64,000 bases of DNA, from positions 33,980-97,979 of the forward strand of contig CAYTBZ010000001.1 of NCBI GenBank assembly GCA_964436275.1, read 5' to 3'. The notes under the pieces are model-generated. The model ran no database searches. It worked only from the letters and a program-made list of their open reading frames with translations, and was not told the origin of the DNA. The first letter of the stretch is position 1, and each line of letters begins with the position of its first letter. The DNA comes from an uncultured Gammaproteobacteria bacterium. GTDB lineage: Bacteria; Patescibacteriota; Patescibacteriia; UBA2591; CAYTBZ01. Positions 11,295-48,109 of the stretch are shown here, one piece after another. The position numbers and the translations under genes were made by a program.

Positions 11295-11798
11295 TTATTT
11301 CCTTTTTTCTAAAAGAGTAAAAAGAAAAGTAATAATAACTATTACTGCTGTATTTAAAATAAGGGTATTTAATAATGAAGTAAAGAATATTTTATTCAAA
11401 ACAACAGGTATTTGAATGATACCTAATTTATAAAATAAAAAACTTAAAAAAGTAAAAGATAATTGATAAATCAAAAGGGATAAAAAGGAAAAAATAGTTA
11501 AAGAAACTAAAGAATAACGAGGAAAAAACTTCTTGAAAAGATAGTGGGCAAAATAACTTACAAATAAGAAAAGAACGATATAAGTGCCGAAAGGATAAAA
11601 AGAATAAAAAGATAAAATAAATCCACCAAAGAGACTCCAGAAGAAACTTAAACGATAATCAAACAAAACAAAGAAAATAATAAAACATAAAATCAAGTTT
11701 AAAGAAGAAAGAAAGGAAAAATTTCTTAAAACAACTAATTGAAAAATTCCTAAAATAAAAATTATTAAAATATGAAATAAAATTTTATTTATCCTCAT
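11295..11798 (-). CDS. mreD: Rod shape-determining protein MreD (membrane)
   Basis: 167 aa polytopic membrane protein following mreC with overlap. Confidence 0.5.
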   Translation of the reverse strand: MRINKILFHILIIFILGIFQLVVLRNFSFLSSLNLILCFIIFFVLFDYRLSFFWSLFGGFILSFYSFYPFGTYIVLFLFVSYFAHYLFKKFFPRYSLVSLTIFSFLSLLIYQLSFTFLSFLFYKLGIIQIPVVLNKIFFTSLLNTLILNTAVIVIITFLFTLLEKRK

Positions 11799-12633
11799 TT
11801 TTTGGCTTAAGAACAGCTACCAAGTTTATCTCTTTAAACGGAATTAATGGTCTAGCCAAAACATCCTGAAATAGTTCTCCGGATTTGATCTCTACATCTT
11901 CTATTTCACCAATAATTAAACCTTTGGGAATATATCTTTCCTTTCCTGAAGTGACAACAATGTCCCCTCTTTTCACCTCTTTATCTACTGGAATTAAACT
12001 TAAAGATAAATAAAATCCATGAACCCCCTGAACCAGACAATCAACATTTTCTTTTTCATTAAGAACAGTGCCAGCAAAAACACTTTGGTAATCAGTAATC
12101 AAACGAACAAAAGAAGAATAAGGATTAACTTTGATTACTTTTCCTATTAAAAAACCTTGGGGCTCTTTTTCATCATTTTGGAGAATAGATTTAGAAAAAA
12201 CAACAGGATAACCAGGTTTTATCCCATCTTTTTCTCCTAAATCAATAATTAATCCAATTTGAGCACTAGGAGCCTCCTTAATTTGACCGATAACATTAGC
12301 TAAAACAAAATTATACCTTTGTTTAAGGAAAAAATTAAGCGCTTCTCTTAAACTTTTATTCTCTTCTCGATAAATTTTCAATTGACTGTTTTCAATTAAT
12401 AAGTCATTGACTTTCTCTCTTAGTCCTTTATTCTCTTTTAATAATTCATCTTTAGACCTAAAGAAACTCCTTAAATTATCAATTTTATGAGATAAAAAAG
12501 AAAATTTTTGGAGTAAAGGATTAGTTATTCTTTTTTGAATACCTTTAGAAAAAGACAGCAATTCAAAAAGTATAAAGAGAATAAAAAAAACGAGAATAAT
12601 CCAAAGTAAAAGACTAATTTTTTTCCTTTTCAT
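11785..12633 (-). CDS. mreC: Rod shape-determining protein MreC
   Basis: N-terminal TM, coiled coil, C-terminal beta-rich domain. Position between mreB and mreD. Confidence 0.65.
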   Translation of the reverse strand: MKRKKISLLLWIILVFFILFILFELLSFSKGIQKRITNPLLQKFSFLSHKIDNLRSFFRSKDELLKENKGLREKVNDLLIENSQLKIYREENKSLREALNFFLKQRYNFVLANVIGQIKEAPSAQIGLIIDLGEKDGIKPGYPVVFSKSILQNDEKEPQGFLIGKVIKVNPYSSFVRLITDYQSVFAGTVLNEKENVDCLVQGVHGFYLSLSLIPVDKEVKRGDIVVTSGKERYIPKGLIIGEIEDVEIKSGELFQDVLARPLIPFKEINLVAVLKPKNEDK

Positions 12634-12655
12634 AAGAAGTATTACAAGGAAATTA

Positions 12656-13711
12656 TCATTTAATCTTTGCTTCTTCTTCCTCAGGATAAACGGCTAACTC
12701 CTTAAGCTGTTCAAAGTTTTCTAAAATAAAACCAACTCCCCTAATAACTGCTGTTTGAGGGTCTTCAAGAATATGAACAGGAATTTTAATTTCTTTGGAG
12801 ATTAATTTATCAATATTTTTCAACAAAGCACCCCCACCACAAAGAACAATTCCTTTTTGATAAATTTCAGCGACCAATTCTGGAGGAGTCATTTCTAAAA
12901 TATCCTTGATATTATTCAAAATTATTTTTAAGGACTTTTGAATTGCTTCTCTTATCTGAGAATCATTAACTATTATTTCTTTAGGAAGTCCGGAAATTGC
13001 ATCTCTTCCCCTAACTTTTGTCTCTAAGGCCTCTTTAAGAGGGAAAGCCGAACCAATTCTCTTTTTCAATTCCTCAGCTGATTTCTCTCCTAAAAGAAGG
13101 TTCCATTCACTTTGCGCATATTGAATAATATTTTTGTTCAACTCTTCCCCAGCCACGGGAAAAGATTTTCCAATTACAATCCCCCCTAAAGAAATAACAG
13201 CAATTTGTGTGATTCCGCCTCCGATGTCAACAATCATTGAACCAGTCGCCTCTTGAACTGGCAACTTTGCACCTACAGCCGCAGCTAAGGGACTCTCCAC
13301 TAAAAGTACTTCACCTGCTCCTGCTTGTTTTGCTGCATCTTCTACAGCCTTCTTCTCAACGCCAGTAATATCTAAAGGAATTGAAGAAAGTATTCGTGGC
13401 CGACTAAAAAAGCCAAATTTCTCTTGAGATATCTTATCAATAAAAAAGCCCAACATTTTTTCAACTGCTTCAAAATCAGATATAATTCCTTGAGAAAGTG
13501 GACGGGTGGCTAGAATATGGGCTGGTGTCTTACCTACCATTTTCAAAGCATCTTCGCCCATAGCCAAAATTGAATCTGTTCGGGTATTAATAGCGATGAC
13601 CGAAGGCTCATTTATAACTATTCCTTTGCCCTTGACACAGACCAAGGTATTACTTGTTCCCATATCTATTCCTATATCTTTAGAAAATTTTCCTAAAAAA
13701 TTTTTAAACAT
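12656..13711 (-). CDS. mreB: Actin-like rod-shape protein MreB
   Basis: IGIDMGTSNTLV... actin/Hsp70 fold phosphate-1 motif, 351 aa. Confidence 0.9.
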   Translation of the reverse strand: MFKNFLGKFSKDIGIDMGTSNTLVCVKGKGIVINEPSVIAINTRTDSILAMGEDALKMVGKTPAHILATRPLSQGIISDFEAVEKMLGFFIDKISQEKFGFFSRPRILSSIPLDITGVEKKAVEDAAKQAGAGEVLLVESPLAAAVGAKLPVQEATGSMIVDIGGGITQIAVISLGGIVIGKSFPVAGEELNKNIIQYAQSEWNLLLGEKSAEELKKRIGSAFPLKEALETKVRGRDAISGLPKEIIVNDSQIREAIQKSLKIILNNIKDILEMTPPELVAEIYQKGIVLCGGGALLKNIDKLISKEIKIPVHILEDPQTAVIRGVGFILENFEQLKELAVYPEEEEAKIK

Positions 13712-16521: not shown

Positions 16522-18309
16522 TTATTCTAAAATTGCTTTTATTCTTCTTACTCCAGCAGAAGATGACTGCTCTTTAATAATTTTAAACTTGCCTAAAACA
16601 CCTGTCCTTTTCACATGAGGACCAGCGCAAATTTCCTTAGAGAAATCTCCTATTGAATAGACCTTTACTTTTTCTCCATATTTATTCTCAAATAGTCCAA
16701 TAGCACCTTCCTTTTTTGCCTCCTCCAAACTCATCTCTTGACAAATAACTGGTAAATCTTTTTCTATTTGTTGATTGACTAAATCTTCTACCTTCTTTAT
16801 CTCTTCAGGGGTTAATTTACGCGGGAAAGAAAAATCAAAACGCAATCTTTCTGGGGTAATATTACTACCCATCTGTCTAACCTTATCTCCTAAAACTATT
16901 CTTAATGCTTGATGAAGTAAATGAGTGGCAGTATGATATTTTTTAGAAATCTCTGAGTGGTCAATCAAACCTCCTTTAAATCTTTTCTTTGCTCCTGCCC
17001 GTGAAATTTCTCTATGCTTTTCCATAAGTTTATTAAAATCTTCAATTGCTTTTGGGTCAACCTTTATTTTTTCTTCCTTAGCAATTTCTAATGACATTTC
17101 CAGCGGGAAACCATAAGTAGAAAAAAGAGAATATAAAATATCACCGTTCAATTTTGAATTAATACTGACTAACTTATTAAACATTTTTAATCCTTTTTCT
17201 AAAGTGCGGTTAAATTTTTCTTCTTCTCTAATCAACTGTTCCTGAATAAAATCTCTATTCTCTTTTAATTCTGGGTAGATATCCTGCATTTGGTTAATAA
17301 CTATTTCGCTGATTTTGAAAGTAAAGGAAGGTTCTTTAATGTCAATCATTCGACCATATCTAATCGCTCGACGGATAAGTCGACGCACAACATAACCCTG
17401 GTCCAAATTTGAAGGGGTAATTCCTCTCTTATCGCCTAAAATAAAAGTTGCGGCTCTTAAATGGTCAGCGATAATTCTCATCGCCTTTTTAATTTTCTCA
17501 TTATCATTGTATTTTTTAGAAGAAAGTTTTTCAATTTTCTGAATAATTGGCCAAAGAGAGTCAATATAATAAACATCAGGGAAACCATTTAAAACAGCAA
17601 CAACTCTTTCTAATCCCATTCCTGTATCAACATTTTTTTGTTTCAATTCGCTAATCTGTCCATTTTTATCTTTATAATAAAACATAAAGACATTATTCCA
17701 AATTTCTACCCACTTTTCTGGCTCATTTTTTGGATTACTTTGGAAAGAAGGCAAATTTTTATTAGAATAATAGAACATTTCTGTGTCCGGACCACACGGT
17801 CCAATCTCTCCTACCGGACCCCACCAATTATCTTCTTCTCCCATAAAAACTATTCTATTCTCAGGAATGCCTAATTTTTTCCAAAAGAGAAATGACTCCT
17901 CATCTCTTGGCAAATTTCCCTTACCTTCAAAAAGAGTGATGGCTAACTTATCTTTTGATAAATTAAGCCAACGAGGATGAGTTAAAAACTCAAAACTCCA
18001 CTCAATAGCTTCTTTTTTCCCATAATCTCCTAATGACCAGTTACCCAACATTTCAAAAAAAGTTAAATGCCAAGCGTCTCCTACCTTTTCAATATCACTT
18101 GTTCTAATACATTTTTGACAATTGGCTAATCTTCTACCCTGAGGATGTTTTTCTCCTAAAAGAAAAGGAATAAGTGGATGCATTCCCGCTGTAGTGAATA
18201 AAACTGTGGGGTCATTTTCAGGAATTAAAGAAGCAGAAGGGATAATTTGATGCCCCTTCTCTTTAAAAAAATCTAAAAATTTTTTTCGTAGTTCTTGGGA
18301 AGTTATCAT
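16522..18309 (-). CDS. alaS: Alanyl-tRNA synthetase, minimal form lacking C-Ala domain
   Basis: N-terminal AlaRS catalytic core (FTTAGMHPLIPF, WHLTFFEMLGNWS) and editing-domain motifs (HTATHLLHQAL, CAGPHV). 595 aa. Confidence 0.8.
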   Translation of the reverse strand: MITSQELRKKFLDFFKEKGHQIIPSASLIPENDPTVLFTTAGMHPLIPFLLGEKHPQGRRLANCQKCIRTSDIEKVGDAWHLTFFEMLGNWSLGDYGKKEAIEWSFEFLTHPRWLNLSKDKLAITLFEGKGNLPRDEESFLFWKKLGIPENRIVFMGEEDNWWGPVGEIGPCGPDTEMFYYSNKNLPSFQSNPKNEPEKWVEIWNNVFMFYYKDKNGQISELKQKNVDTGMGLERVVAVLNGFPDVYYIDSLWPIIQKIEKLSSKKYNDNEKIKKAMRIIADHLRAATFILGDKRGITPSNLDQGYVVRRLIRRAIRYGRMIDIKEPSFTFKISEIVINQMQDIYPELKENRDFIQEQLIREEEKFNRTLEKGLKMFNKLVSINSKLNGDILYSLFSTYGFPLEMSLEIAKEEKIKVDPKAIEDFNKLMEKHREISRAGAKKRFKGGLIDHSEISKKYHTATHLLHQALRIVLGDKVRQMGSNITPERLRFDFSFPRKLTPEEIKKVEDLVNQQIEKDLPVICQEMSLEEAKKEGAIGLFENKYGEKVKVYSIGDFSKEICAGPHVKRTGVLGKFKIIKEQSSSAGVRRIKAILE

Positions 18310-18310
18310 T

Positions 18311-19891
18311 TTAATGGAAGGAAACGGGCTTTTTATTTTTTATTTCCTCTAAACTTATAGGTTTTTCTTCAGGAGCAGTTGCCTTTTTTTCTCGGAGATG
18401 TTTTTTTATCACTGCGTCTTCATTGATAAGTCCTTTTCTCACCTTTTTTAAACATTCTTTGCAATAGACAGGTCTAACACCATCTGGTTTAAAAGAAACC
18501 TTTGTCTTCTTACCACAAGCCCAGCATTCAGCTTCATATTTTTTAACCTCTTTTTTCTCCTCTTCTGAAGAAATGTTTTTCTTTTCCTCCTTTCTTTCTT
18601 CTTCAATAACCCCACTCCAACGAGCAATTTTGTCTTCAATAACTTCTCTTTTTACCGCATATCTCTCTCGAGAAACTTTAATAATAGAATCACGATAAGA
18701 TTTTTGAGGTAAAGGACGAGGAGGAAGAGTTACTGCGCTAAACGGGTCACCAGCAATTCCGTCAACCATTAACTTTAAATAAATATGAAACTTAGGAAGG
18801 TTCACCATATCATTTGCTGTAAAAGTTGGAGCAAATTCCTTTTCTAAAAATTCTGCATCAGCAGCGCCTACTCGAAAAACAATTATTGTACCAACATTGC
18901 CGAAAACAGCGTCTCTAACAACTTCATCCATTTGAGAAATATATTGATGAGCCATAGTAATGGATAAACGATATTTTCTTGCTTCTGATAAGATATTAGC
19001 AAATGACTCTGTAGCAAAATTTTGAAACTCATCAACATAAAGATAAAAATCTCTTCTCTCCTCTTCTGGAGTATCAATTCTACTCATCGCCGCTAACTGA
19101 ATTTTAGTAATCATCATTGCGCCTAATAGATGACTAGCGTCTTCACCAATCGCTCCTTTAGATAAATTCATAATAAGGATCTTTCCTTCATCCATTACTG
19201 TACGTAAATCGATTTTTGATTTAGTTTGACCAACAATATTTCTAATCAACGGGCTTGATAAAAACTGTCCAACTTTATTTTGAATAGGAGCAACTGCTTC
19301 TGTGGCAAAACGATCAGGATAACGGGCGAATTCTTCTGTCCAGAATGACTTAACTACTGGATCTTTTATCTTGGAAACCACCTTTTTTCGATAGGTTTTA
19401 TCTACTAACATTCTCATAATTCCTAAAAGGGTGCTCCCCGGATATTCAAGAAGGGCTAAAATAGCGTTTCTTAGAACATATTCTAATCTTGGACCCCAAG
19501 AATCAGCCCAGATTTTTTTAAAAACGCCAATCAAACCAGAAGCAACAAGATGACGAAAAGCAGGATCTACCTTTTCCATAACATTAAAAGAAATAGGATA
19601 CTCAATATCAGCAGGATTAAAATAAATAACATCATTAACTCGATGAGAAGGAACAAAATCTAAAACTTTTTCTGCATATTCACCATGAGGGTCAATCACT
19701 GCTAAACCATTACCCGCTTCAATATCTGAAATAGTCATATTTTCTAAAAGAACTGTTTTACCCATTCCTGTCTTACCAACAATATAGATATGACGACGAC
19801 GATCATCTTTTTTAATACCAAAAATACGCCGTTGACCACGGAAATTTGTCTCAGCAAAAAAAGTTATTTCATTTTCTTGATTGTTAGTCAT
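18311..19891 (-). CDS. TrwB/TraD/VirD4-like (T4CP-type) P-loop ATPase with C-terminal Cys4 zinc ribbon
   Basis: Walker A IYIVGKTGMGKT, then VIDPHGEY (DPxGE motif of coupling proteins), Walker-B-like LYVDEFQNF. C-terminal CWACGKK-x15-CKEC. Confidence 0.55.
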   Translation of the reverse strand: MTNNQENEITFFAETNFRGQRRIFGIKKDDRRRHIYIVGKTGMGKTVLLENMTISDIEAGNGLAVIDPHGEYAEKVLDFVPSHRVNDVIYFNPADIEYPISFNVMEKVDPAFRHLVASGLIGVFKKIWADSWGPRLEYVLRNAILALLEYPGSTLLGIMRMLVDKTYRKKVVSKIKDPVVKSFWTEEFARYPDRFATEAVAPIQNKVGQFLSSPLIRNIVGQTKSKIDLRTVMDEGKILIMNLSKGAIGEDASHLLGAMMITKIQLAAMSRIDTPEEERRDFYLYVDEFQNFATESFANILSEARKYRLSITMAHQYISQMDEVVRDAVFGNVGTIIVFRVGAADAEFLEKEFAPTFTANDMVNLPKFHIYLKLMVDGIAGDPFSAVTLPPRPLPQKSYRDSIIKVSRERYAVKREVIEDKIARWSGVIEEERKEEKKNISSEEEKKEVKKYEAECWACGKKTKVSFKPDGVRPVYCKECLKKVRKGLINEDAVIKKHLREKKATAPEEKPISLEEIKNKKPVSFH

Positions 19892-19900
19892 AAGAATTTA

Positions 19901-21367
19901 TTAAGCAACAGGTAAATTAGGCGGCGGTTCTCCTCCTTTTTTATTCTCTTTTATTTCCGCCTCATTTTTTACTTTATTATTTTTTACTTTATTATTCTCC
20001 TTCTCCTCTTTATGATTTTTCTCCTTTGGCTCATAATTAGCAATGCGGATAACCGGCTGCCTTACTTCTTCAATAGTAGGCAGAATAACCGGGGCTTCTG
20101 CCTTTTTCACTTCTACCTTTTTAAGTAAAGGTACCTTTACCGTTTTTAAAGGAAAATGATAAATGGTGGCTAATTCTTCAGTATTAAGAATAAAATGACT
20201 GGCTACTGTATAATTGCTTCTTCGCCGATATTGATTAAGAATTTCTGTTTGTTTTTTTGCTAAAATTTTCTGGCCACGAAATCGAGGAGCAGATGTTTTT
20301 GCTTTAGAATGTGGTTTAAATCCGTTCATATCTAAAGTATTAAACTGTTGAATCGCACCTAAAACTGAGGCAACTCCTCGTGCAGCAGAGAAAACATCCT
20401 TTCTGGCTAAATAAATAACTCTAAATTTAGACTTAAAACCTAGTTTGGAAATTTTATTTTGAATTGCTTCAACTATCTTTCTTTCACCAGGAGAAAGAAA
20501 TTGCATTTGGGAAATTAAAGAACTTGACTCTTTTTTGGTTGGCGGAAATGGCCCAAAAATATGATTATGCAAAGATTCCATTAATTCAATAGGTAAATCA
20601 AAAATGCGGTCAAAAATACTTGGTTTTGATTTACTCTTTTTGCCAATCAATTTCTTTACTAATTCCTCTCCCTTCTTTTTCCATTCAGAACCAGTAGGTG
20701 TGATTAAAAGTTGCAACCAGATTTGTTCTCCTTCTCCTATCTTACTAAGCGCTTCCAATAAAGCAGCCATTGGATCTTTAAAACTTTCCTTATCTAAAGG
20801 GTCTTGAAATTGAGAATAAGTTCTAATAGGATAAGGATCTTTATTATAAAGAACTAACTCTGCTCCCCATAGATTATACTCTTCTGAAGGAAATTTTTCC
20901 GGTCCGGCATCAGTATAATCTTCTACCTCAGTAATTTCTGCTTCAGGATATTGGGCATAAATAGCTGATTCAACTAAATCACGAAGATTTCTTGGAGTTC
21001 TAATTAAAAATTGCACATATCCTTCAATACTTATCAATTCTAAACTAAAAGGAATAGGAAGAAATCCTTTGATGTTTCTCTCTATCCAGTCATAACTTTT
21101 TCTTGCCCCGGCTAATTGAGCAAACATCTGTTCTGCTGCTTTTGGACCTTGTTCATTGTCTCTTGGAACATCAATAGCAAGTAGGCAATAATCAATACTT
21201 GCTAAATATTTCTGTCTTTTATTACTTAGAATAATATTCCAAATTATTCCTAAAAGATAAAAAATAAAAATAACCCAGCCACCATGTTTAAAAATGCTCC
21301 ACATTATTACCCAAGGCGGCTGACCGCCCCATTCACTTAAAAAAGTCAAATCAATAGTTAAAGACAT
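19901..21367 (-). CDS. Membrane-anchored hypothetical protein partnered with the ATPase
   Basis: Two N-terminal TM helices, large soluble domain, K/E/N-rich low-complexity tail. 10-nt gap to downstream ATPase. Confidence 0.5.
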   Translation of the reverse strand: MSLTIDLTFLSEWGGQPPWVIMWSIFKHGGWVIFIFYLLGIIWNIILSNKRQKYLASIDYCLLAIDVPRDNEQGPKAAEQMFAQLAGARKSYDWIERNIKGFLPIPFSLELISIEGYVQFLIRTPRNLRDLVESAIYAQYPEAEITEVEDYTDAGPEKFPSEEYNLWGAELVLYNKDPYPIRTYSQFQDPLDKESFKDPMAALLEALSKIGEGEQIWLQLLITPTGSEWKKKGEELVKKLIGKKSKSKPSIFDRIFDLPIELMESLHNHIFGPFPPTKKESSSLISQMQFLSPGERKIVEAIQNKISKLGFKSKFRVIYLARKDVFSAARGVASVLGAIQQFNTLDMNGFKPHSKAKTSAPRFRGQKILAKKQTEILNQYRRRSNYTVASHFILNTEELATIYHFPLKTVKVPLLKKVEVKKAEAPVILPTIEEVRQPVIRIANYEPKEKNHKEEKENNKVKNNKVKNEAEIKENKKGGEPPPNLPVA

Positions 21368-21383
21368 AATATCTTAAAAACTT

Positions 21384-22490
21384 TTATATCTTTTTTAACC
21401 GATATTTTCCTCCGGGCAATTTCTCAAACTTTTCTTTATTACCCAAAGCGACTAAAATTGTTTGTTTTTTAACTAAGCGTTGCTTTAAAACTTCATTTAT
21501 AATCTCTTCTTTAGGCAACGGTTTTTGGGCTCGTTTTAATATCTTTTCAATCAATTCGCTTACTGTTCCCGGTTCTATACCCCATTCAGCCAGTGCATAA
21601 ATACCTCGGCCGACCAGAACATATCTTATATCAGCGGTTAGATTATTCCTTACGGTTGCTTCGTGTGCTGATTGAAGAGAATAATGTTTATTAATCAACT
21701 GTACTATCTCTGTAAAATGAAGGGGTCTTTTTTCCTTTTTAAGGACATAATAAATTTTATCGCTAATTTTTCTTAACTGAACTAATCCCCAAAAACTAAA
21801 CCCCCACTCATTAAAAAGATTTTTACCCATTCTATTAGTCAGATGCAATAACGACAAAATAAATAAATCAGTAAGTTTTTTCTTATTATTTAAATAAAAT
21901 CCCGTCTGTTTGAATTTTTTGATTAGGTCACTTTCAGAAATCGGTTCTCCTTCTTTCTCTACAATTCTTACCAATTCTCTAATAGCCTTTCTGACAAAAG
22001 TTAAAGAAGCGTCTTTAAATCTCCATCCCCTTTCAAACTCTTTATCTTTTTGGAACTCTTCAATAGAGTCGTTTAAAAATTTATTTATAATGAAAATAAA
22101 AAAGTTTTTAGCCAATTTTGCTTCTCTTTCATCTTTAATTCCGAATTTTTCTAAAAGTTTATTCAAAAAAAACTCTCTTTCGGCAATACCACCTAATTTT
22201 TTCAATAAAGAAAAGATAATCTCTTTTATCTCTACCAATTCCTTAGTAAAAAGAGAGTTTTTTTGTATCTTTTTTATAGCACCTGATTCTATTTGTCTAA
22301 CCCTTTCTCGACTAATTTGATAATAATTTCCTATCTCCTGCAAACTCATTTTTGGTTTTTCTTTTTTTATTAGATCATCAGAAAGCCCATAATGAAGAAT
22401 TAAAACATCTTTTTCTCGAGATGAAAGAGAATCAAGTAAACTTAAAAAATCTTTTTTAATTTTAGAAAAAGAAATTACTTTTTTCTTCAT
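21384..22490 (-). CDS. Sigma-70 region-4-like HTH protein with C-terminal HARE-HTH domain
   Basis: N-terminal LQEIGNYYQISRERVRQIESGAIKKI (region 4.2-like). C-terminal HFTEIVQLI...TVRNNLTADIRYVLVGRGIYALAEWG (HARE-HTH as in RNAP delta). Confidence 0.55.
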   Translation of the reverse strand: MKKKVISFSKIKKDFLSLLDSLSSREKDVLILHYGLSDDLIKKEKPKMSLQEIGNYYQISRERVRQIESGAIKKIQKNSLFTKELVEIKEIIFSLLKKLGGIAEREFFLNKLLEKFGIKDEREAKLAKNFFIFIINKFLNDSIEEFQKDKEFERGWRFKDASLTFVRKAIRELVRIVEKEGEPISESDLIKKFKQTGFYLNNKKKLTDLFILSLLHLTNRMGKNLFNEWGFSFWGLVQLRKISDKIYYVLKKEKRPLHFTEIVQLINKHYSLQSAHEATVRNNLTADIRYVLVGRGIYALAEWGIEPGTVSELIEKILKRAQKPLPKEEIINEVLKQRLVKKQTILVALGNKEKFEKLPGGKYRLKKI

Positions 22491-34831: not shown

Positions 34832-37030
34832 ATGTTCAAATATAAAATACAGCTGGAAAAACTAATTGTCTCTCCCAAAGAAAAAGAAGGAAAAACCATT
34901 CCTTTTTCTTTTATTTCTGAAGAAGATAATCTTTTGGGCAGTTTGTTTATTATAGGCGAAATAAACGCTTTCCCCAAGAAAAAAGAAAAACCGCAACAAG
35001 CCCTTAATGAATTAATTAATTTTTTAATTGAATCCATAAGAAAAAATTATTTTGACCAGCCATCTTGTCCAACACCCGAAGAACCCTTAGAAAAAACATT
35101 GGAAAAAGTAAATGAAGAATGGCAAGAAAATTTAACAAAAAATTCAGAGATATTAGAAGAGATAGATTTTAAAAGAATTCTTCAAACCCTTCATCTTGTT
35201 GTTGGCGCAGTTAAAGAAAACAATATCTCTTTTTCCCGTTTGGGTATAGCCCACGCTCTTTTAATTAGAGAAAATAAAATAGTGGATATTTTTTCGTCCT
35301 CAGAAGAAAATAATAAAATAAACATTTTTAAGCCATTCTCTAATATTGTCTCAGGTAAACTCAAAAATAACGAAATTATTTTTTTCTGCTTTGATAATTT
35401 TTTGGATTATTTTTCCTTAGAAAAAATAAAAAGAATTCTCCAAGAATACCAACCGGACAAGGCAGCCTCTTATTTACAAAGTTTAATCCAGCCCATTGAG
35501 TCATCAAGAAGTTTCTCGGCTATCATTCTAAAAATAACTCCCCAAAAGAAAACTATTCCTAAAACCATTCATCTTCCTGTGCAGGCAGAAGATTCCTTAA
35601 GTCAATTAATTCTTAAACAAAAAGAAACAGAAAAATTTATTCATCCCTCACCTATTCCTTCATTCCGTTTTCCATTTAAAAAAATAGTCAATCAAATAAA
35701 ATCTCTAAAAGAGAAAAAAGAATCTAAAAAAATTAAAAAGGAAATAAAAAAAGTAAAAAGTCAACTTCTATCTTTAATAAACTCAATAAAGAGAAAAAAA
35801 ATTACCTCTTTTATTGGAGAACAAGTAATTTCTTTGAATAATAAGATAGTCAGTAGATTTCCTCGAATAAAAAAAATAAATATCAAATTGCCTCAATGGA
35901 AAATTAAGGCAAAACTAGTTAAAATCCCTCGGCACAATCGCACTTATTTTGTCGGTGCTGTCACCATTGCTATAATTCTCATTTTAGGAATTTCTATTTC
36001 CTTGCTTTACCAATCTCATCAGAAAAAAATTAGATATTATCATCAAGTAATCAATGAAATTAAAGAAAAACAAACTTTGATTAGTTCAGCCCTAATTTAC
36101 CGTAATGAAAAAAAAGCAAAAGCCCTTCTCTCAGAAGTGAACAAACTTCTCCAAGAAATACCTTCCAACAAATCTCGCTGGCAAAGTATATATGAAGAAT
36201 TATCAGAAAAGAATGAGCAGCAACTTAATCAAGTACGTCATTTAGTCAAATTGGAAAACCCCTTTCTTCTTGTAAATTTAGAAACAAAAGAAACAAACTT
36301 TCAACCGAACCACCTTCTTGTTTTTAAGGATAACCTTTATTTTTGGCAAGGATATAATCTTTATCAAATTAATTTAAGAGATAAAAAAATAAAAAAAATT
36401 GCTCACTCACCATCAGACCAAGGCAACTTAAAACTGGCTGATGTCTTTGATGAAAATTCTCTCATCTTCTTTACAGATAAGCAAAATTTTCTCAAATATG
36501 ACTTAAAAGAAAAGTCATTCTCTCCGTTAAATGTAGAAACAAAACACCATTTAGGAGAAGTCAAAGATATTGAAATCTACGCTAATCGCCTTTATCTTTT
36601 AGATAAAACTAACAATCAAATTTATAAATACCTCCAACTAAAAAATGGTCTGGGCAAAGAAACTACTTGGCTAAAAGACAAAATAAACCTTCAAGAAACA
36701 GTCAATTTAGCTATTGACAGCAATATCTGGCTAGCTAAAAGTAATGGTGAAATTGTTAAACTTTATTTAGGTAAAAAACAAAACTGGCAAGCAAAAATTG
36801 ATCCTCCTCTAAATTCAATAAATAAAATTTATACTAAATTAGATTATAACTATCTTTATATTATTGACGCTAAAAGTAAAAGGGTGATTATTCTAGATAA
36901 GAATGGTAAATTATATCAGCAGTTTGAATCAGATAAATTTGATGATTTAAAAGATATAATTGTTGATGAACCAGCAGGAAAAATTTATCTGCTAAATAAA
37001 GCAAAAATCTATTTAATCCAATTTAAATAA
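34832..37030 (+). CDS. Large hypothetical membrane protein (N-terminal cytoplasmic domain, one TM, C-terminal repeat/beta-rich domain)
   Basis: 732 aa. TM at TYFVGAVTIAIILILGISISLLY. The only large plus-strand gene. Bidirectional terminator follows. Confidence 0.55.
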   Translation: MFKYKIQLEKLIVSPKEKEGKTIPFSFISEEDNLLGSLFIIGEINAFPKKKEKPQQALNELINFLIESIRKNYFDQPSCPTPEEPLEKTLEKVNEEWQENLTKNSEILEEIDFKRILQTLHLVVGAVKENNISFSRLGIAHALLIRENKIVDIFSSSEENNKINIFKPFSNIVSGKLKNNEIIFFCFDNFLDYFSLEKIKRILQEYQPDKAASYLQSLIQPIESSRSFSAIILKITPQKKTIPKTIHLPVQAEDSLSQLILKQKETEKFIHPSPIPSFRFPFKKIVNQIKSLKEKKESKKIKKEIKKVKSQLLSLINSIKRKKITSFIGEQVISLNNKIVSRFPRIKKINIKLPQWKIKAKLVKIPRHNRTYFVGAVTIAIILILGISISLLYQSHQKKIRYYHQVINEIKEKQTLISSALIYRNEKKAKALLSEVNKLLQEIPSNKSRWQSIYEELSEKNEQQLNQVRHLVKLENPFLLVNLETKETNFQPNHLLVFKDNLYFWQGYNLYQINLRDKKIKKIAHSPSDQGNLKLADVFDENSLIFFTDKQNFLKYDLKEKSFSPLNVETKHHLGEVKDIEIYANRLYLLDKTNNQIYKYLQLKNGLGKETTWLKDKINLQETVNLAIDSNIWLAKSNGEIVKLYLGKKQNWQAKIDPPLNSINKIYTKLDYNYLYIIDAKSKRVIILDKNGKLYQQFESDKFDDLKDIIVDEPAGKIYLLNKAKIYLIQFK

Positions 37031-38311: not shown

Positions 38312-39973
38312 TCAATGCACCTCCTCTTGTTTCTCTTTTAAGAAATAGCGCCAACGCTCCAAAAACTCAACAAATAAAACAAATGGGCTATCTATTAAAA
38401 TAGTAAAGAAAATACCAACAACATTATACTTTCTCCAACGAGCAGCTAACCATTTACCAAAATGAATTATCGGCAGAATAAGAGGATAAATTAAAAACGT
38501 CCATAAACCTTCTTTCGCCTTGGTCATATGAAGCTCGCGCGCTCTTTTTCTGATTAACGAACCAGTAAAGAAAATTAAAGAAGTAAAGATGACGAAAATA
38601 GCATAAGAAAGAACGGTTGGAAAATGGATAAAATATAAAAAGCCAATAATTATTGCTAAAGAAATAACAGCCCCTAAAGCATAAATAAAACCAAAGATAG
38701 TTTTAGTTATTGGACCTTTTGGAGGATAATATTCTATATCAATTGGTTTAATATTTTCTTTTTGATAAATACTATTCTCTAATTCTTCCATTACTAAATC
38801 AAAATTATTTTTTGGAGGCAATCTAATAGTAGAAACCAGAAAGAACATCAAACCTGTTGGAACAAAAATATCGCATAAGGCGGAAACTAAATTAAATTTT
38901 CCGGTAACCAACTTTGTAAAAGGAATTTCAACTAAATAAAGAGAAAAGACATTAGTTAAAAAAACAGAAAGAGTAGTATAAAAAGCAGAGCGAAAAAGTC
39001 GTTTTCTTAAAGTAGATAATCTTTTTTTATAAGCAGCAAAAATTTCTTTTCTCATCACATTTGGATCAAGAATATCATCAGGGAGTTCTTCCTCCTCGTT
39101 AAAAAAGACATCTCCTAATAGGAGAAAAGGGGTATCATATAATTCAAAAACATCGTAAAAACGATCGGCTAAAAGATGAGAAAAATAACTTTCTATTTTT
39201 CCTAAAAGACGGTGGATATTTTCAGTGATTTCTTTAATGGATTCCTCTTCCCAACTAAACCATTTTGGGTAATATCTTTTGATTAAATTATAAGTGATAA
39301 TTGGCTTATCTAATTTAAAAAGCGATTGACAGACAGCAATATAGATTAATATCTTTTTATCTCCTTCAGTTAAATTACTTATTCTCTTAGCGGTTTCACT
39401 TACTCTCACTCGCCGGCTCATTACTCCTTCCATCAATTCTATTAAGATATCGGCTTTACGATAACTTAAAGGGTCAAGTATTTCTTCAGTTTCACAAGCA
39501 GCAATTTTTAAAATATCATCCTGAAATTGCGGCTTGGTCACTCCTTCCGGTGGCTCAGGAGCATTTTCTAATATATATTTATACTTTTCCAATAATCTTT
39601 GGACTCGAGGAATAATTGATTTTTTAATAGAATCATTGGGAAAATAGCCACCCCGGATTAAATTGAGGACTGTTTCTTCTCCAACATTGCTAAAAGAATT
39701 TCTTTTTAAAAATAATGCTCTTTTTAACACACGCTCAATAGCAATCCTTCTCATTAAATGTTCCTCTTTCCAATCAACAACTTTTCTGATTTTTTCATAA
39801 AAGACAGCAACTTTACTGCTAACCTCATCAACATGGATAGTTGGGGCTAAAACTGGTTCTTTTTTTCTTTTTAGATAATCAGCCCTTTCTCTAAGAAAAT
39901 TTTCCATTTCCCGAGAAATCATCAGTGGTTTATTTACTTTATTTTTTTCTTTATTAATCTTTCGCAAATACAT
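38312..39973 (-). CDS. Hypothetical protein with soluble N-terminal half and C-terminal multi-TM region
   Basis: 553 aa. Hydrophobic helices from about residue 330 onward. Confidence 0.45.
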   Translation of the reverse strand: MYLRKINKEKNKVNKPLMISREMENFLRERADYLKRKKEPVLAPTIHVDEVSSKVAVFYEKIRKVVDWKEEHLMRRIAIERVLKRALFLKRNSFSNVGEETVLNLIRGGYFPNDSIKKSIIPRVQRLLEKYKYILENAPEPPEGVTKPQFQDDILKIAACETEEILDPLSYRKADILIELMEGVMSRRVRVSETAKRISNLTEGDKKILIYIAVCQSLFKLDKPIITYNLIKRYYPKWFSWEEESIKEITENIHRLLGKIESYFSHLLADRFYDVFELYDTPFLLLGDVFFNEEEELPDDILDPNVMRKEIFAAYKKRLSTLRKRLFRSAFYTTLSVFLTNVFSLYLVEIPFTKLVTGKFNLVSALCDIFVPTGLMFFLVSTIRLPPKNNFDLVMEELENSIYQKENIKPIDIEYYPPKGPITKTIFGFIYALGAVISLAIIIGFLYFIHFPTVLSYAIFVIFTSLIFFTGSLIRKRARELHMTKAKEGLWTFLIYPLILPIIHFGKWLAARWRKYNVVGIFFTILIDSPFVLFVEFLERWRYFLKEKQEEVH

Positions 39974-45762: not shown

Positions 45763-46809
45763 CTATCTTTTCGTTATAGTAACTTTTTTGAAAAAGTCCA
45801 TATCAACTAACTTTCCAAAAGAGGTAAAAGGAGCATGAAGAAAACCATATTTCCTTCCTAGAACAAGAATCCTTTCCATATAAGAAATATCTATTTCTCC
45901 GATATGATCAGAATGATCATTTTCTAAACACTGAATTATTGCTTCCGCCCAACAAGAAAACGTTGTCCCTGACCGGACACCAGGTACTCTTACTCCTAAT
46001 TCTATATTGGGGATATTTACCATGGCTCCGTCAATTTTAAGTAAATTCGGTCTAATCTGACGAATTATTTCATAGCTAGCTTTTGAAAGATTAGGAGGCA
46101 CAGAAACTTCATAGACCACTACTCGTTTATCTTTGTTAATATAATCTGCTTTTATAAGTGAATCGGGGTGACTTGTTGCTGTTACAATAATATCTGCTGG
46201 ATATATATCGCTTAAAGAAACAGAGGCTTTTATTTTCGCTGCTCGAGGATAAGGTAAATTACTTATAAATCTCTGGAGTCGTGTTGGATTGTGCCCTATT
46301 AAAATTAAAGACACGTCTCTCTTACATAAAGACAAGGTCAGGGCTTTACCTATCAACCCATATGCTCCGACAATAGCTATGGTAAACTCTTCTAAAGAGG
46401 TGCCCATAGCTTCTGCAATTAAATCTAAACCCTCCAGGGAAACTCCGGCCGCATAACTATCTCCGTGGGTGATAGCAGCAGTAACGCCTTCTTGAATAAC
46501 AAGCCAACGTCCTTTATCAGTAATAGAAGAAGTTAATGAGGTTAAAGCAACAAACTCTACCCCTAAATAATTTTGGGCCCAGATTACAGCATCCAAAATA
46601 TCTTTTCTGACTTTCCTTATATTACCCGGTGACATCATATCTTTTCCGGTCACACCTAGTGTAATCACATAACCCTTAGCTCTATCAAAAATATTAAATT
46701 CACCCCATACTTTATATGCGGGAAGATTTCTTTTACTTTCGCACTCCGGAAATACGGCTGGTATATCTGATTTGTCTCTTAAATTTGTAATTATAGCTAC
46801 CTTTCTCAC
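45763..46809 (-). CDS. NAD(P)-binding Rossmann-fold oxidoreductase, shikimate-DH/glutamyl-tRNA-reductase-like C-terminal half, novel N-terminal half (GTG start)
   Basis: IAIVGAYGLIGKAL dinucleotide motif, ADIIVTATSHPDSLI...VVVYEVSVPPN resembling AroE/HemA NAD domains. Confidence 0.45.
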   Translation of the reverse strand: MRKVAIITNLRDKSDIPAVFPECESKRNLPAYKVWGEFNIFDRAKGYVITLGVTGKDMMSPGNIRKVRKDILDAVIWAQNYLGVEFVALTSLTSSITDKGRWLVIQEGVTAAITHGDSYAAGVSLEGLDLIAEAMGTSLEEFTIAIVGAYGLIGKALTLSLCKRDVSLILIGHNPTRLQRFISNLPYPRAAKIKASVSLSDIYPADIIVTATSHPDSLIKADYINKDKRVVVYEVSVPPNLSKASYEIIRQIRPNLLKIDGAMVNIPNIELGVRVPGVRSGTTFSCWAEAIIQCLENDHSDHIGEIDISYMERILVLGRKYGFLHAPFTSFGKLVDMDFFKKVTITKR

Positions 46810-47227: not shown

Positions 47228-48109
47228 TTATTCCTCCTCTATTCCACTGTCAAACTCAATTTTATACTTACTCATTTGGCTCAAGTCGTAATCAGTATAA
47301 ATATAACCTTCAAATGTCTTCGTCTGACCATTACTGAAATTAGAAATAATAATAAGTTCAGATTCAAGAAGATTATCATCCTCATCATAGACACTGATTC
47401 TGAAATGCGCTAAAAGATAATCCTTACCAGAGTTATTAGTCATTTCACCTATTACTTTAATATACCCTACTCCAGAGTCCTTAAAATGCACATTTTTATA
47501 AAAAAATCCTCCGGCTATACCCGTAGCTTCTTCCTCTGTGATCCCTCTTTTAAATCCTTTTGTCTTCTTCTGGATATCCCGAAACGTCTCTTCAGTTTTA
47601 TTAATCGTCTTCTTAAACTCTTCCCATCTATCCTTATCAAGTACTATGGTAACCTTTTGGGCATCTATTTTATTAACACTAACTATAGTTATGTAAGGAC
47701 CTTTGACTCCGACCTTCTTCTCAAATTCCTTTTCAAACCAAATACCAATAACCAAAAAAACATTTTCTCCTCTTATTCTATCTTCTACCGAACCAATGAT
47801 AAGAACTGAATCAGCGAGTTCCTGATAGTTCTCTTGAGTTTCCTGAAACGACTTATCTGTCTTACTAACTATCGTCTTAAGCTCTTCCCAACTATCCTTA
47901 TCCAAAAGTACAACAACTTTCTGGGAGTCAATATTATCAACATTAACTATACTTATAAAAGGACCAATCTTTTGTGCAAGGCCAGCAACCATACCTAAAT
48001 AATTCTCCTTTAGAACCATATCTTTCACTACTCCAGTAACGATAAGAGAATCAGGTTCAGCAATTAATGAGATAAATAAAAAGAGGAGAACTAATAAAAC
48101 CTTCTTCAC
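47228..48109 (-). CDS. Secreted hypothetical protein with two tandem ~90-aa repeat domains (GTG start)
   Basis: Signal-peptide-like MKKVLLVLLFLFISLIA, SD AAGGAGG. Internal DNA tandem duplication (about 47560-47700 vs 47830-47960). Confidence 0.55.
   Translation of the reverse strand: MKKVLLVLLFLFISLIAEPDSLIVTGVVKDMVLKENYLGMVAGLAQKIGPFISIVNVDNIDSQKVVVLLDKDSWEELKTIVSKTDKSFQETQENYQELADSVLIIGSVEDRIRGENVFLVIGIWFEKEFEKKVGVKGPYITIVSVNKIDAQKVTIVLDKDRWEEFKKTINKTEETFRDIQKKTKGFKRGITEEEATGIAGGFFYKNVHFKDSGVGYIKVIGEMTNNSGKDYLLAHFRISVYDEDDNLLESELIIISNFSNGQTKTFEGYIYTDYDLSQMSKYKIEFDSGIEEE

Follow-up and report, generated by a model that had tools for sequence, protein, structure and literature searches.

A coupling-protein-like ATPase and a DUF8128 membrane protein with a VirB4-N-terminal-domain-like fold form a conserved split-gene pair in Patescibacteria

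Why does an ATPase resembling type IV coupling proteins (T4CPs) lie next to a membrane-protein gene among core genes of a Patescibacteria chromosome, and what might the two proteins do together? Much of bacterial diversity belongs to the Patescibacteria, whose life on their hosts depends on surface machines. Their type IV secretion system (T4SS) is essential, and to our knowledge neither its substrates nor its coupling protein is known. The first-pass annotation of the 64-kb stretch of DNA analysed here (the window) had read the pair as a split coupling-protein-like module with a chromosomal, non-conjugative role.

Both open reading frames were recovered on the minus strand at the positions and sizes first annotated (526 and 488 aa; Table 1). 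Searches matched more than 8000 90%-identity clusters for the ATPase and 2603 for the DUF8128 protein, and we therefore regard both as real genes rather than chance ORFs. Nine nucleotides separate them, and their place between alaS and a Sigma70_r4/HARE-HTH gene was borne out, with alaS starting 1 nt downstream of the ATPase gene and the Sigma70_r4/HARE-HTH gene ending 16 nt upstream of the DUF8128 gene. A promoter/terminator scan gave no signal better than shuffled sequence. Pfam labels of nearly all window genes denote housekeeping functions, and neither these labels nor tblastn revealed a relaxase, VirB4 or other T4SS gene in the 64 kb. Searches by tblastn of the window and of 1.41 Mb of flanking Patescibacteria sequence, in which TrwK, the TrwC relaxase, Replic_Relax and three further VirB4-like proteins served as queries, gave no match beyond the ATPase gene; as negative evidence this is weak, because the search has limited sensitivity for divergent Patescibacteria VirB4. 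Within that sensitivity, the earlier observation that the window holds no other conjugation genes agrees with the data.

Table 1 Features of the gene pair and its upstream neighbour (positions in the window)
Feature	Positions	Strand	Basis
Sigma-70 region 4 + HARE-HTH + winged-helix protein, 368 aa	21384-22490	-	Pfam
Membrane subunit, DUF8128 (PF26449), 488 aa	19901-21367	-	Precomputed Pfam label
N-terminal hydrophobic helix, membrane anchor, residues ~19-49, then basic NKRQK	21221-21313	-	Kyte-Doolittle, AF2
Cytoplasmic alpha/beta domain, VirB4-N-terminal-domain-like fold, residues 58-405	20153-21196	-	
Disordered C-terminal tail with two conserved proline motifs	19904-20101	-	pLDDT <50
Soluble T4CP-type (TrwB/VirD4/TraD-like) ATPase subunit, 526 aa	18311-19891	-	ORF
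Walker A VGKTGMGKT, residues 38-46	19754-19780	-	G39, K40, T41, G42, G44, K45 invariant (n=33 homologues)
Walker B YLYVDEFQNF, residues 283-292	19016-19045	-	D287, E288, F289, Q290, N291, F292 invariant in 33/33 homologues
CxxC-x17-CxxC treble-clef zinc ribbon, residues 451-484	18440-18541	-	zf_Tbcl_2 PF23477, TIGR04272
C-terminal linear motif ISLxEAxxKEPxxF, residues 512-525	18317-18358	-	Kept across otherwise unalignable tails (alignment)

Profile searches, the check proposed in the first-pass annotation, took the ATPase above the Pfam gathering scores of TrwB_AAD_bind (46.8 bits, cut-off 20.5), T4SS-DNA_transf (27.8, 20.1), TraG-D_C (29.9, 22), DUF87 (38, 23.2) and zf_Tbcl_2 (48.6, 27), and TrwB was its closest solved relative by sequence (E 1.8e-8). 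A TrwB query also found the ATPase orthologue in 55 loci by tblastn, whereas VirB4 queries did not. Scores against the NCBIfam equivalogs TraD, VirD4-like CD1115 and CedD (51, 48 and 35 bits) stayed below the cut-offs of 366, 250 and 600, as did that against the VirB4 model TIGR00929 (17.4 bits, cut-off 643); the FtsK_SpoIIIE motor domain was not matched, nor was the architecture of HerA-NurA, in which a HAS barrel is joined to a RecA-like domain and the nuclease NurA is the partner. The T4CP-model scores and the proximity to TrwB support the proposed assignment: within the FtsK/HerA superfamily, the ATPase belongs to the T4CP branch (TrwB/VirD4/TraD). The motifs on which that proposal had relied, IVGKTGMGKT (residues 37-46), VIDPHGEY (65-72) and a DEF-type Walker B, are all present and invariant or nearly so in an alignment of 33 homologues. 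In the AF2 model a helical block at residues 110-234 forms an all-alpha domain inserted in the NBD, the same arrangement as in the classical T4CPs TrwB of R388, VirD4, TraD and DotL. Hydropathy analysis revealed no hydrophobic segment, in line with the reported lack of an N-terminal TM anchor. Whereas classical T4CPs have their own two-helix anchor and no VirB4-like N-terminal domain, here anchor and domain are both on the DUF8128 protein, and we infer that this gene product supplies the anchor in trans. The C-terminal zinc ribbon stood, with a spacing of x17 (the TIGR04272 pattern) rather than x15: C456-x2-C459-x17-C477-x2-C480 (zf_Tbcl_2 E 6.3e-13; TIGR04272 E 9e-13), with all four Cys invariant in the 33 homologues and the exact CxxC-x17-CxxC motif in 44 of 56 paired orthologues. 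TraD and DotL likewise carry a C-terminal extension at this place, which binds adaptors.

The partner protein bears the Pfam label DUF8128, as do nearly all its homologues, and a search of a 1.84-billion-protein library returned 3398 representatives at E<=1e-3, the best 150 of which are all stand-alone proteins of 370-690 aa. The membrane anchor and large soluble domain first described were retained, but the two TM helices are probably one: the hydrophobic stretch is continuous over ~31 residues (Kyte-Doolittle peak 24-50) and the AF2 model has a single helix at 18-57; one TM helix with a preceding interfacial segment is more likely than two. A conserved GGW and basic residues on the C-terminal side of the helix suggest that the large domain is cytoplasmic. 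The two proline motifs of the tail are (E/A)PPxxLP (residues 423-430), in which P426, L429 and P430 are invariant, and a terminal PPxNLP (480-488), which recurs in most DUF8128 homologues; the proline motif occurs in no other protein of the window. What had been missed is that its soluble domain resembles the N-terminal domain of VirB4. Its structural matches include neither 4ag5, a VirB4 structure of the C-terminal domain only, nor TrwB, and the match is therefore to the VirB4 N-terminal domain. Taken together, the pair has both folds by which VirB4 is recognised, an N-terminal domain fold and a RecA-like C-terminal domain fold. This link is structural only, because hhalign of the DUF8128 profile gave no significant similarity to TrwK of R388 (from NC_028464; E 0.35) or to the VirB4-like protein of plasmid pBM69; the curated VirB4 models TIGR00929 and CagE_TrbE_VirB did not match DUF8128, and PDB sequences returned only noise. 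Compared with VirB4 itself (TrwK of R388; T. pseudethanolicus VirB4), the pair differs in having no sequence-level match, an ATPase that is T4CP-like by sequence, and no VirB3, VirB6 or VirB8 neighbours; moreover, a separate VirB4 coexists with fused relatives of the pair. EccE/EccC of ESX type VII secretion also count among the closest known systems.

These fused relatives bear out the earlier view of a split coupling-protein module. On the pBM69 protein WP_003349917, hhalign mapped DUF8128 to residues 53-307 (E 4.5e-10) and the ATPase to 329-762 (E 6e-32); on phrog_5156 the corresponding positions were 79-372 (E 1.4e-19) and 406-821 (E 5.9e-65), and both genes also mapped collinearly on phage G gp156 and a Priestia plasmid protein. 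Because the two genes map in N- to C-terminal order on single proteins of ~830 aa, the pair is a true split gene; by these sequence alignments, DUF8128 and the ATPase correspond to the halves of a protein that elsewhere, on conjugative plasmids of Gram-positive bacteria and in phages of Bacillus, is one chain. Such single-chain DUF87/TraM-recognition coupling proteins (Bacillus methanolicus pBM69, phage G gp156, phrog_5156) share the domain order of the window pair but consist of one polypeptide instead of two, lack the zinc-ribbon tail, and reside on mobile elements beside Replic_Relax and VirB4-like genes rather than on a chromosome among core genes. An N-terminal TM helix is present in the Priestia and Embleya proteins and absent in those of pBM69 and gp156. 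The fused genes of pBM69 and Embleya adjoin genes for Replic_Relax, PrgI (VirB3-like) and VirB4-like proteins, and the ancestral context of the fused protein is conjugative. The plasmid and phage relatives were detectable with profiles only: tblastn with DUF8128 gave no match in PLSDB plasmids or INPHARED phages, and an IMG/VR scan gave one marginal match of 39 residues. The closest ATPase relative outside Patescibacteria is a stand-alone 395-aa protein of a Sulfitobacter plasmid (43% identity), which gives no functional clue because no DUF8128 or defence partner lies nearby.

A home on conjugative plasmids and in phages could mean that the pair is all that is left of a decaying prophage or integrated conjugative element, without current function. 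The distribution of the pair makes this highly improbable. Of 68 Patescibacteria loci, 56 have the ATPase gene directly downstream of DUF8128, and the median gap is 3.5 nt. The pair always sits among housekeeping genes, and none of 82 Patescibacteria loci showed it inside a conjugative element, the finding that would have spoken against the first-pass reading; no T4SS gene was found within 10 kb and no Pfam label of a VirB3, VirB6 or VirB8 channel gene in the neighbourhoods. The two genes are translationally coupled, and vertical descent has conserved them in a housekeeping context across the Patescibacteria. Identity is 56-73% over at least 590 species-level genomes; median identity is 65% for the ATPase and 54% for AlaRS, and the ATPase value was the higher one in 22 of 22 paired loci. 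Proteins derived from conjugation are not usually so well conserved, which hints at an interaction network of a housekeeping kind. Conservation at this level, with invariant catalytic motifs, effectively refutes a remnant; core-gene synteny is kept, no integrase, relaxase or repeats were found around the pair, its base composition equals that of the rest of the window, and tblastn with DUF8128 found nothing in the plasmid and phage collections apart from the marginal IMG/VR match. The Sigma70_r4/HARE-HTH gene, first taken as a mere boundary, proved to be a conserved member of the module: tblastn placed it immediately before DUF8128 in 38 of 73 loci and the profile search did so in 45, and this trio is kept while its flanks differ between loci.

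The remark that this architecture had not been characterised was too strong. Quinonero-Coronel et al. catalogued 5,713 orphan VirD4-like homologues in 2,918 of 3,035 Patescibacteria genomes (96%) in 2025, compared with VirB4 in 2,417 of 3,035 (~80%), mostly without relaxase; they found the T4CP genes usually distant from virB4, and raised exaptation (PMC12102498). In Southlakia epibionticum, SEML1_0293 is a fused 921-aa T4CP with its ATPase domain at 402-719, and it directly follows SEML1_0294, which has the same Sigma70_r4 + HARE-HTH architecture as in the window (Wang et al. 2023, PMC10633639). SEML1_0293 is likely the orthologue of the window pair, and from length and synteny its N-terminal 400 residues would be DUF8128-like. 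Tn-seq called SEML1_0294 essential and SEML1_0293 non-essential, although normalised reads for the latter fell (5817, 2940, 1372) and those for its neighbours stayed flat; the Southlakia T4SS is essential, as is a second T4CP-like gene, SEML1_0142, whose domain was assigned as FtsK-like (PMC10633639). The orphan T4CPs and SEML1_0293 share with the window ATPase its family, a chromosomal site far from virB4 and the lack of a relaxase, and differ in that Southlakia has one fusion where the window lineage has two genes. Both studies give the ATPase only; the DUF8128 partner with its VirB4-like fold, the split/fused relation and the conserved trio are new relative to PMC12102498 and PMC10633639.

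Our main reading, to which we assign a probability of about 0.5, is that the two proteins are subunits of one split T4CP-type translocation ATPase that docks on a chromosomal T4SS in an accessory role. DUF8128 would be held in the membrane by its single N-terminal helix, and its cytoplasmic domain would hold a hexamer of the soluble ATPase much as the VirB4 N-terminal domain holds its motor domain at the inner-membrane complex of the T4SS. By analogy with the substrate and adaptor tails of TraD and DotL, which occupy the same position, the zinc-ribbon tail and terminal motif may select cargo, most likely nucleic acid. The motor would most probably dock on the relaxase-less T4SS encoded elsewhere on the chromosome in most Patescibacteria, giving an accessory rather than the essential DNA or protein delivery or uptake function, and the sigma-region-4/HARE-HTH protein would be co-expressed and may supply DNA targeting. 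Genes for classical T4CPs go together with those for a relaxase and a T4SS; beside the pair, Pfam labels and BLAST of limited sensitivity showed neither, in the window or within 10 kb in 82 loci. Because most Patescibacteria are reported to carry T4SS genes elsewhere on the chromosome and T4CP genes are often far from virB4, however, an empty 64-kb window is no argument against a T4SS partnership. Of the chromosomal, non-conjugative role first suggested, the chromosomal part accordingly holds (82 loci), whereas independence from a T4SS does not follow, since ~80% of genomes encode one elsewhere. Several observations nevertheless count against docking: T4CP homologues outnumber VirB4 across genomes (PMC12102498), no T4SS gene lies near the pair, the T4SS is essential in Southlakia and SEML1_0293 is not, so that SEML1_0142 could be the true partner, conservation of the ATPase exceeds that of a tRNA synthetase, and the likeness to VirB4 is one of structure only.

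Some of these observations lend weight to a less probable, tentative alternative, in which the pair and the HARE-HTH protein are an exapted membrane-anchored DNA (or RNA) translocase working without a T4SS on a Patescibacteria-specific task, such as taking up or exporting nucleic acid to scavenge nucleotides, handling the chromosome at the membrane or clearing DNA-bound complexes. The constant core-gene setting, the trio that persists as flanks change, the 22/22 conservation result, the 96% versus 80% gap with the authors' own suggestion of exaptation (PMC12102498), a partner with DNA/RNAP-type domains that is essential in Southlakia (PMC10633639), and the nucleic-acid-style zinc ribbon as a Patescibacteria-specific addition all fit it. 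The VirB4-like fold and the conjugative surroundings in which the fused relatives occur point instead to a T4SS interface. A core housekeeping task is also hard to reconcile with the Southlakia orthologue, which co-cultured cells can do without, and the essential T4CP-like gene is the second one, with the FtsK-like domain. Incomplete MAGs could also explain the gap, because T4CP genes average about two per genome. Broader still, and doubtful, is the idea that the trio is a Patescibacteria-wide T4SS-independent nucleic-acid translocation machine, made up of the essential sigma-region-4/HARE-HTH protein as DNA/RNAP binder, DUF8128 as membrane subunit and the zinc-ribbon T4CP as motor. A conjugation coupling protein would then have been domesticated at an early stage of the radiation and its VirB4-like N-terminal domain reused as a stand-alone membrane platform; since these epibionts are nucleotide auxotrophs, one possible role would be moving host-derived or own DNA or RNA along their membrane or across it.

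If the split-motor reading holds, the near-universal orphan T4CP of Patescibacteria would be a two-subunit machine with DUF8128 as its membrane half. The VirB4-N-terminal-domain-like fold gives DUF8128 a structural identity, and gene fission or fusion links it to coupling proteins of Gram-positive plasmids and of jumbo or SPO1-like phages. A shared ancestor of VirB4 and T4CPs has long been proposed, and a coupling protein whose N-terminal domain is of the VirB4 type bears on that proposal. The pair is a testable candidate for how cargo couples, or does not couple, to the Patescibacteria T4SS, and Southlakia offers an existing genetic system in which all three genes are open to manipulation.

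Linkage to the essential sigma-region-4/HARE-HTH protein is a further lead. HARE-HTH domains occur in restriction enzymes according to Pfam, and the ATPase matches PADLOC mad8 (E 9.3e-18) and HerA models, raising the question of an anti-phage or anti-plasmid defence module built on a T4CP/HerA-like ATPase (cf. DndH of Dnd, mad8 of MADS), with the HARE-HTH protein sensing foreign or modified DNA; SEML1_0293 also adjoins a CRISPR-Cas9 locus (PMC10633639). We consider this improbable. Only the ATPase domain matches: DUF8128 has no PADLOC match, the HARE-HTH protein matches only over its sigma-r4 stretch, and no methyltransferase, nuclease, DndFG or other defence gene lies beside the pair in the window or the labelled loci. 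Near-universal, vertical and highly conserved occurrence is the opposite of patchy, fast-evolving defence islands, and the HARE-HTH partner is essential in Southlakia (PMC10633639). A cryptic relaxase was likewise rejected for this gene, because hhalign against the pBM69 Replic_Relax protein aligned nothing. Its product matches Pfam Sigma70_r4 (E 3e-14) and HARE-HTH (E 2.4e-10), with a profile match to region 4 of RpoD/SigA at about E 1e-19; it is not a complete sigma factor, and its annotation as RpoS is erroneous.

The window had a GC content of about 32%, GC skew was negative in every 2-kb bin (positions 1–64,000) and almost all genes lay on the minus strand; the whole stretch suggests one replichore with a strong gene-strand bias. 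Its proteins matched metagenome-derived genomes of Patescibacteria (CPR). The two open reading frames described in the first-pass annotation were both found, tightly packed on the same strand, and all of the motifs quoted for them were present in the sequence. The 488-aa membrane protein corresponds to Pfam DUF8128 (PF26449) by precomputed database label, a family of which we found no mention in the searchable literature. Together with the ATPase gene it forms a co-oriented, tightly coupled and catalytically intact pair that sits among core chromosomal genes and is subject to strong purifying selection.

Coordinates of the trio and alaS in the window, and extents of the DUF8128-like and ATPase regions in fused relatives (residues or alignment positions)
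Feature	Position	Strand	Length	DUF8128-like region	ATPase region	Remarks
Sigma70_r4/HARE-HTH gene	21384-22490	-				upstream of DUF8128 gene, 16-nt gap
DUF8128 membrane protein	19901-21367	-	488 aa			
T4CP-type ATPase	18311-19891	-	526 aa			starts 9 nt downstream of DUF8128 ORF
alaS	16522-18309	-				downstream of ATPase gene, 1-nt gap
B. methanolicus pBM69 protein			833 aa	53-307, prob. 96.7%, E 4.5e-10	329-762, E 6e-32	hhalign
Bacillus phage G gp156				45-324, E 2e-17	380-784	HMM
Priestia megaplasmid gene				22-387, E 1.5e-20	414-524, E 1.5e-25	HMM; N-terminal TM helix
phrog_5156			824 positions	79-372, E 1.4e-19	406-821, E 5.9e-65	

The ATPase scored above the gathering cut-offs of four Pfam models (TrwB_AAD_bind, T4SS-DNA_transf, TraG-D_C and DUF87), and its best solved relatives by sequence were TrwB and then DotL, which upholds its earlier assignment to the TrwB/VirD4-like family. 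In its AlphaFold model (mean pLDDT 81), structure alone did not separate a type IV coupling protein (T4CP) from a VirB4 motor domain; sequence did, since TrwB as a tblastn query recovered the orthologue in 55 related loci and four VirB4 queries did not, and we therefore regard the protein as a T4CP. Both Walker motifs (A and B) and others besides were invariant across 33 homologues, and the ATPase is therefore predicted to be an active enzyme; its N-terminal hairpin (residues 9-27) is likewise invariant. No transmembrane segment was found in it. The C-terminal zinc ribbon, first read as CxxC-x15-CxxC, has in fact the spacing CxxC-x17-CxxC (TIGR04272, PF23477), and exactly this form occurred in 44 of 56 paired ATPases. 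The nearest relative outside Patescibacteria (43% identity, E 5e-98) was a stand-alone 395-aa protein on an alphaproteobacterial plasmid of Sulfitobacter mediterraneus (NZ_CP081110; L085:6935-8122), located amid transposases and a recombinase and having no DUF8128 partner; horizontal transfer may account for it.

The DUF8128 protein had been credited with two N-terminal transmembrane helices, but its only hydrophobic stretch, some 31 residues long, was modelled as one helix and probably crosses the membrane once. Its AlphaFold model (pLDDT 80, pTM 0.72) begins with this helix, continues as a well-predicted alpha/beta domain up to about residue 405, and ends in a disordered tail in which two proline motifs are conserved: (E/A)PPxxLP and, at the terminus, PPxNLP. 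The top 13 matches in a Foldseek search of the PDB were all TrwK chains. A structure of the VirB4 C-terminal domain only and TrwB, both at the top of the ATPase's Foldseek list, were missing from that of DUF8128; the modelled likeness therefore appears to be to the VirB4 N-terminal domain. This is a fold-level relationship only, and hhalign of DUF8128 against the TrwK sequence gave no significant similarity.

When plasmids and phages were searched by tblastn with the ATPase, 497 plasmid records and 34 phage records matched, none reaching 60% identity; in those examined from Bacillus, Embleya, Haladaptatus and phage G, the homologous region formed the C-terminal half of proteins of 812–1193 aa. 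Tblastn with DUF8128 found nothing in the plasmid and phage collections, and a search of IMG/VR gave a single marginal match. Profile comparisons placed a DUF8128-like region in the N-terminal half of the fused proteins (Table), with a weaker HMM match in the Haladaptatus plasmid protein; in the Priestia megaplasmid, the remainder of the ATPase half lay in a separate ORF. On pBM69 and the Embleya plasmid, the fused gene has as neighbours a Replic_Relax (PF13814) gene, PrgI/VirB3-like genes and a gene for a further, VirB4-like ATPase, and in phage G it comes after the VirB4-like gp155. These neighbours, together with the collinear halves, show that the fused protein stands where Gram-positive conjugation systems have their coupling protein, and that the pair in the window represents the two halves of such a coupling-protein-type ATPase, encoded by separate genes in the same order. 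In the jumbo Bacillus phage G (L088:2196-6338), gp155 carries P-loop_TraG/AAA_10 and is directly followed by gp156; members of the fused family phrog_5156, which has no assigned function, are also found in other lytic phages of Bacillus, SPO1-like and CP-51.

Conservation of the pair in related genomes, raised as a check in the first-pass annotation, was borne out by the wider searches. With the DUF8128 alignment as query and each GTDB species represented by one genome, a scan detected the family in at least 590 species, and the 80 loci kept from it all look like Patescibacteria MAGs, many of them titled 'uncultured Gammaproteobacteria', presumably as a placeholder; an all-against-all HMMER search yielded 3,398 representatives at 50% clustering, of which the best 150 were all stand-alone proteins of 370–690 aa. 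Of the 68 loci with enough sequence, 56 had the ATPase gene immediately after that for DUF8128, in the same orientation (median intergenic distance 3.5 nt); the two genes were unlinked in about a dozen loci. In one sub-lineage (loci L029, L032, L049, L069, L071 and L075, at about 11400-12700 in each), the HARE-HTH gene is kept upstream of DUF8128 and a glycosyltransferase-like gene replaces the ATPase, so the pair can be unlinked. Median identity to the window protein was 65% for the ATPase versus 54% for AlaRS, and the ATPase was the more similar in 22 of 22 loci with both. Tblastn placed the Sigma70_r4/HARE-HTH gene immediately upstream of DUF8128 in 38 of 73 loci, and a profile search did so in 45 loci. 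The trio stayed together while its surroundings varied, with SecDF or DnaKJ on the upstream side and L21, UDP-glucose dehydrogenase or alaS on the downstream side. Neither in the window nor in the related loci searched was the pair found beside a T4SS, relaxase, integrase or defence gene, and the earlier observation that the 64 kb hold no other conjugation genes stood, with no T4SS or relaxase gene seen. A role in defence, to which a mad8 match (E 9.3e-18) and a likeness to DndH would point, is unlikely because of the distribution of the pair, and a mobile-element remnant is less likely still.

A profile of the HARE-HTH protein matched primary sigma factors in their region 4 (about E 1e-19), and no sigma region 2 was found in the protein. 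It was therefore rejected as a sigma factor and, being unrelated to Replic_Relax, also as a relaxase; its domains predict a multi-winged-helix DNA- or RNAP-binding protein. Its linkage to the motor genes is conserved. In Southlakia epibionticum, SEML1_0294 (349 aa; Sigma70_r4 27-72, HARE-HTH 225-283) is annotated 'RpoS', essential, and flagged as core and Patescibacteria-enriched (Wang et al. 2023, PMC10633639), yet it is without sigma region 2. This protein and its window counterpart may be an undescribed RNAP-associated factor. Directly after it lies SEML1_0293, a 921-aa T4CP (TrwB domain 402-719) that carries the same flags and was called non-essential, although its normalised reads fell over passages (5817, 2940, 1372) with neighbouring genes flat (PMC10633639). 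The identical upstream gene and an N-terminal region of about 400 residues make SEML1_0293 a likely fused orthologue of the pair. Beside gyrB/gyrA lies another T4CP-like gene, SEML1_0142, which is essential and encodes a protein of 1019 aa with a 'TraM recognition domain' and an FtsK-like domain assignment (PMC10633639); its product may act as the true coupling protein of the T4SS or stand in for FtsK.

Quinonero-Coronel et al. (2025, PMC12102498) counted 5,713 VirD4-like T4CP homologues, only 148 of them near virB4, in 2,918 of 3,035 Patescibacteria genomes, with VirB4 in 2,417 and relaxases in 103; they raised possible exaptation of the T4CP and described no partner protein. In our preferred reading (probability about 0.5), the motor docks on a chromosomal, relaxase-less T4SS encoded elsewhere, using the VirB4-like domain as interface, in an accessory transfer or uptake function. 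DUF8128 would be anchored by its one helix, with the VirB4-NTD-like domain in the cytoplasm, as judged from the basic residues after the helix, and would bring a ring of ATPase to the membrane. Substrate selection would fall to the ATPase's zinc-ribbon tail and terminal motif, since they sit where TraD and DotL carry adaptor-binding tails. The main rival, a T4SS-independent nucleic-acid translocase acting with the HARE-HTH protein, we hold to be possible but rather doubtful; in its favour are the constant absence of linked T4SS genes, the reported prevalence of 96% for T4CP versus 80% for VirB4, the extreme sequence conservation and the essential second T4CP in Southlakia.

Patescibacteria were already known to carry orphan T4CP homologues, and for one of these a Tn-seq phenotype was on record. 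In the searchable literature we found no account of this T4CP as a two-subunit protein, of a putative fold in DUF8128 resembling the VirB4 N-terminal domain, of the relationship by fission or fusion with proteins of Gram-positive plasmids and of phages (phrog_5156), of a zinc-ribbon tail added specifically in this lineage, or of the conserved trio with its essential sigma-r4/HARE-HTH protein.

AlaRS is only 595 aa long (tRNA-synt_2c and tRNA_SAD), presumably without the C-terminal domain of canonical AlaRS enzymes; its orthologue in a related locus (L093) has 640 aa. An IS200/IS605-type Y1 transposase (PF01797; 48282-48989, minus strand) was the sole mobile-element gene seen in the window. Pfam gave no confident assignment for the two ORFs after it: 47228-48109 had no match and 45763-46809 only a faint Shikimate_DH match. 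Two large ORFs had no Pfam match, one of 553 aa (38312-39973, minus strand) and one of 732 aa (34832-37030), the latter being the only large plus-strand gene in the 64 kb.
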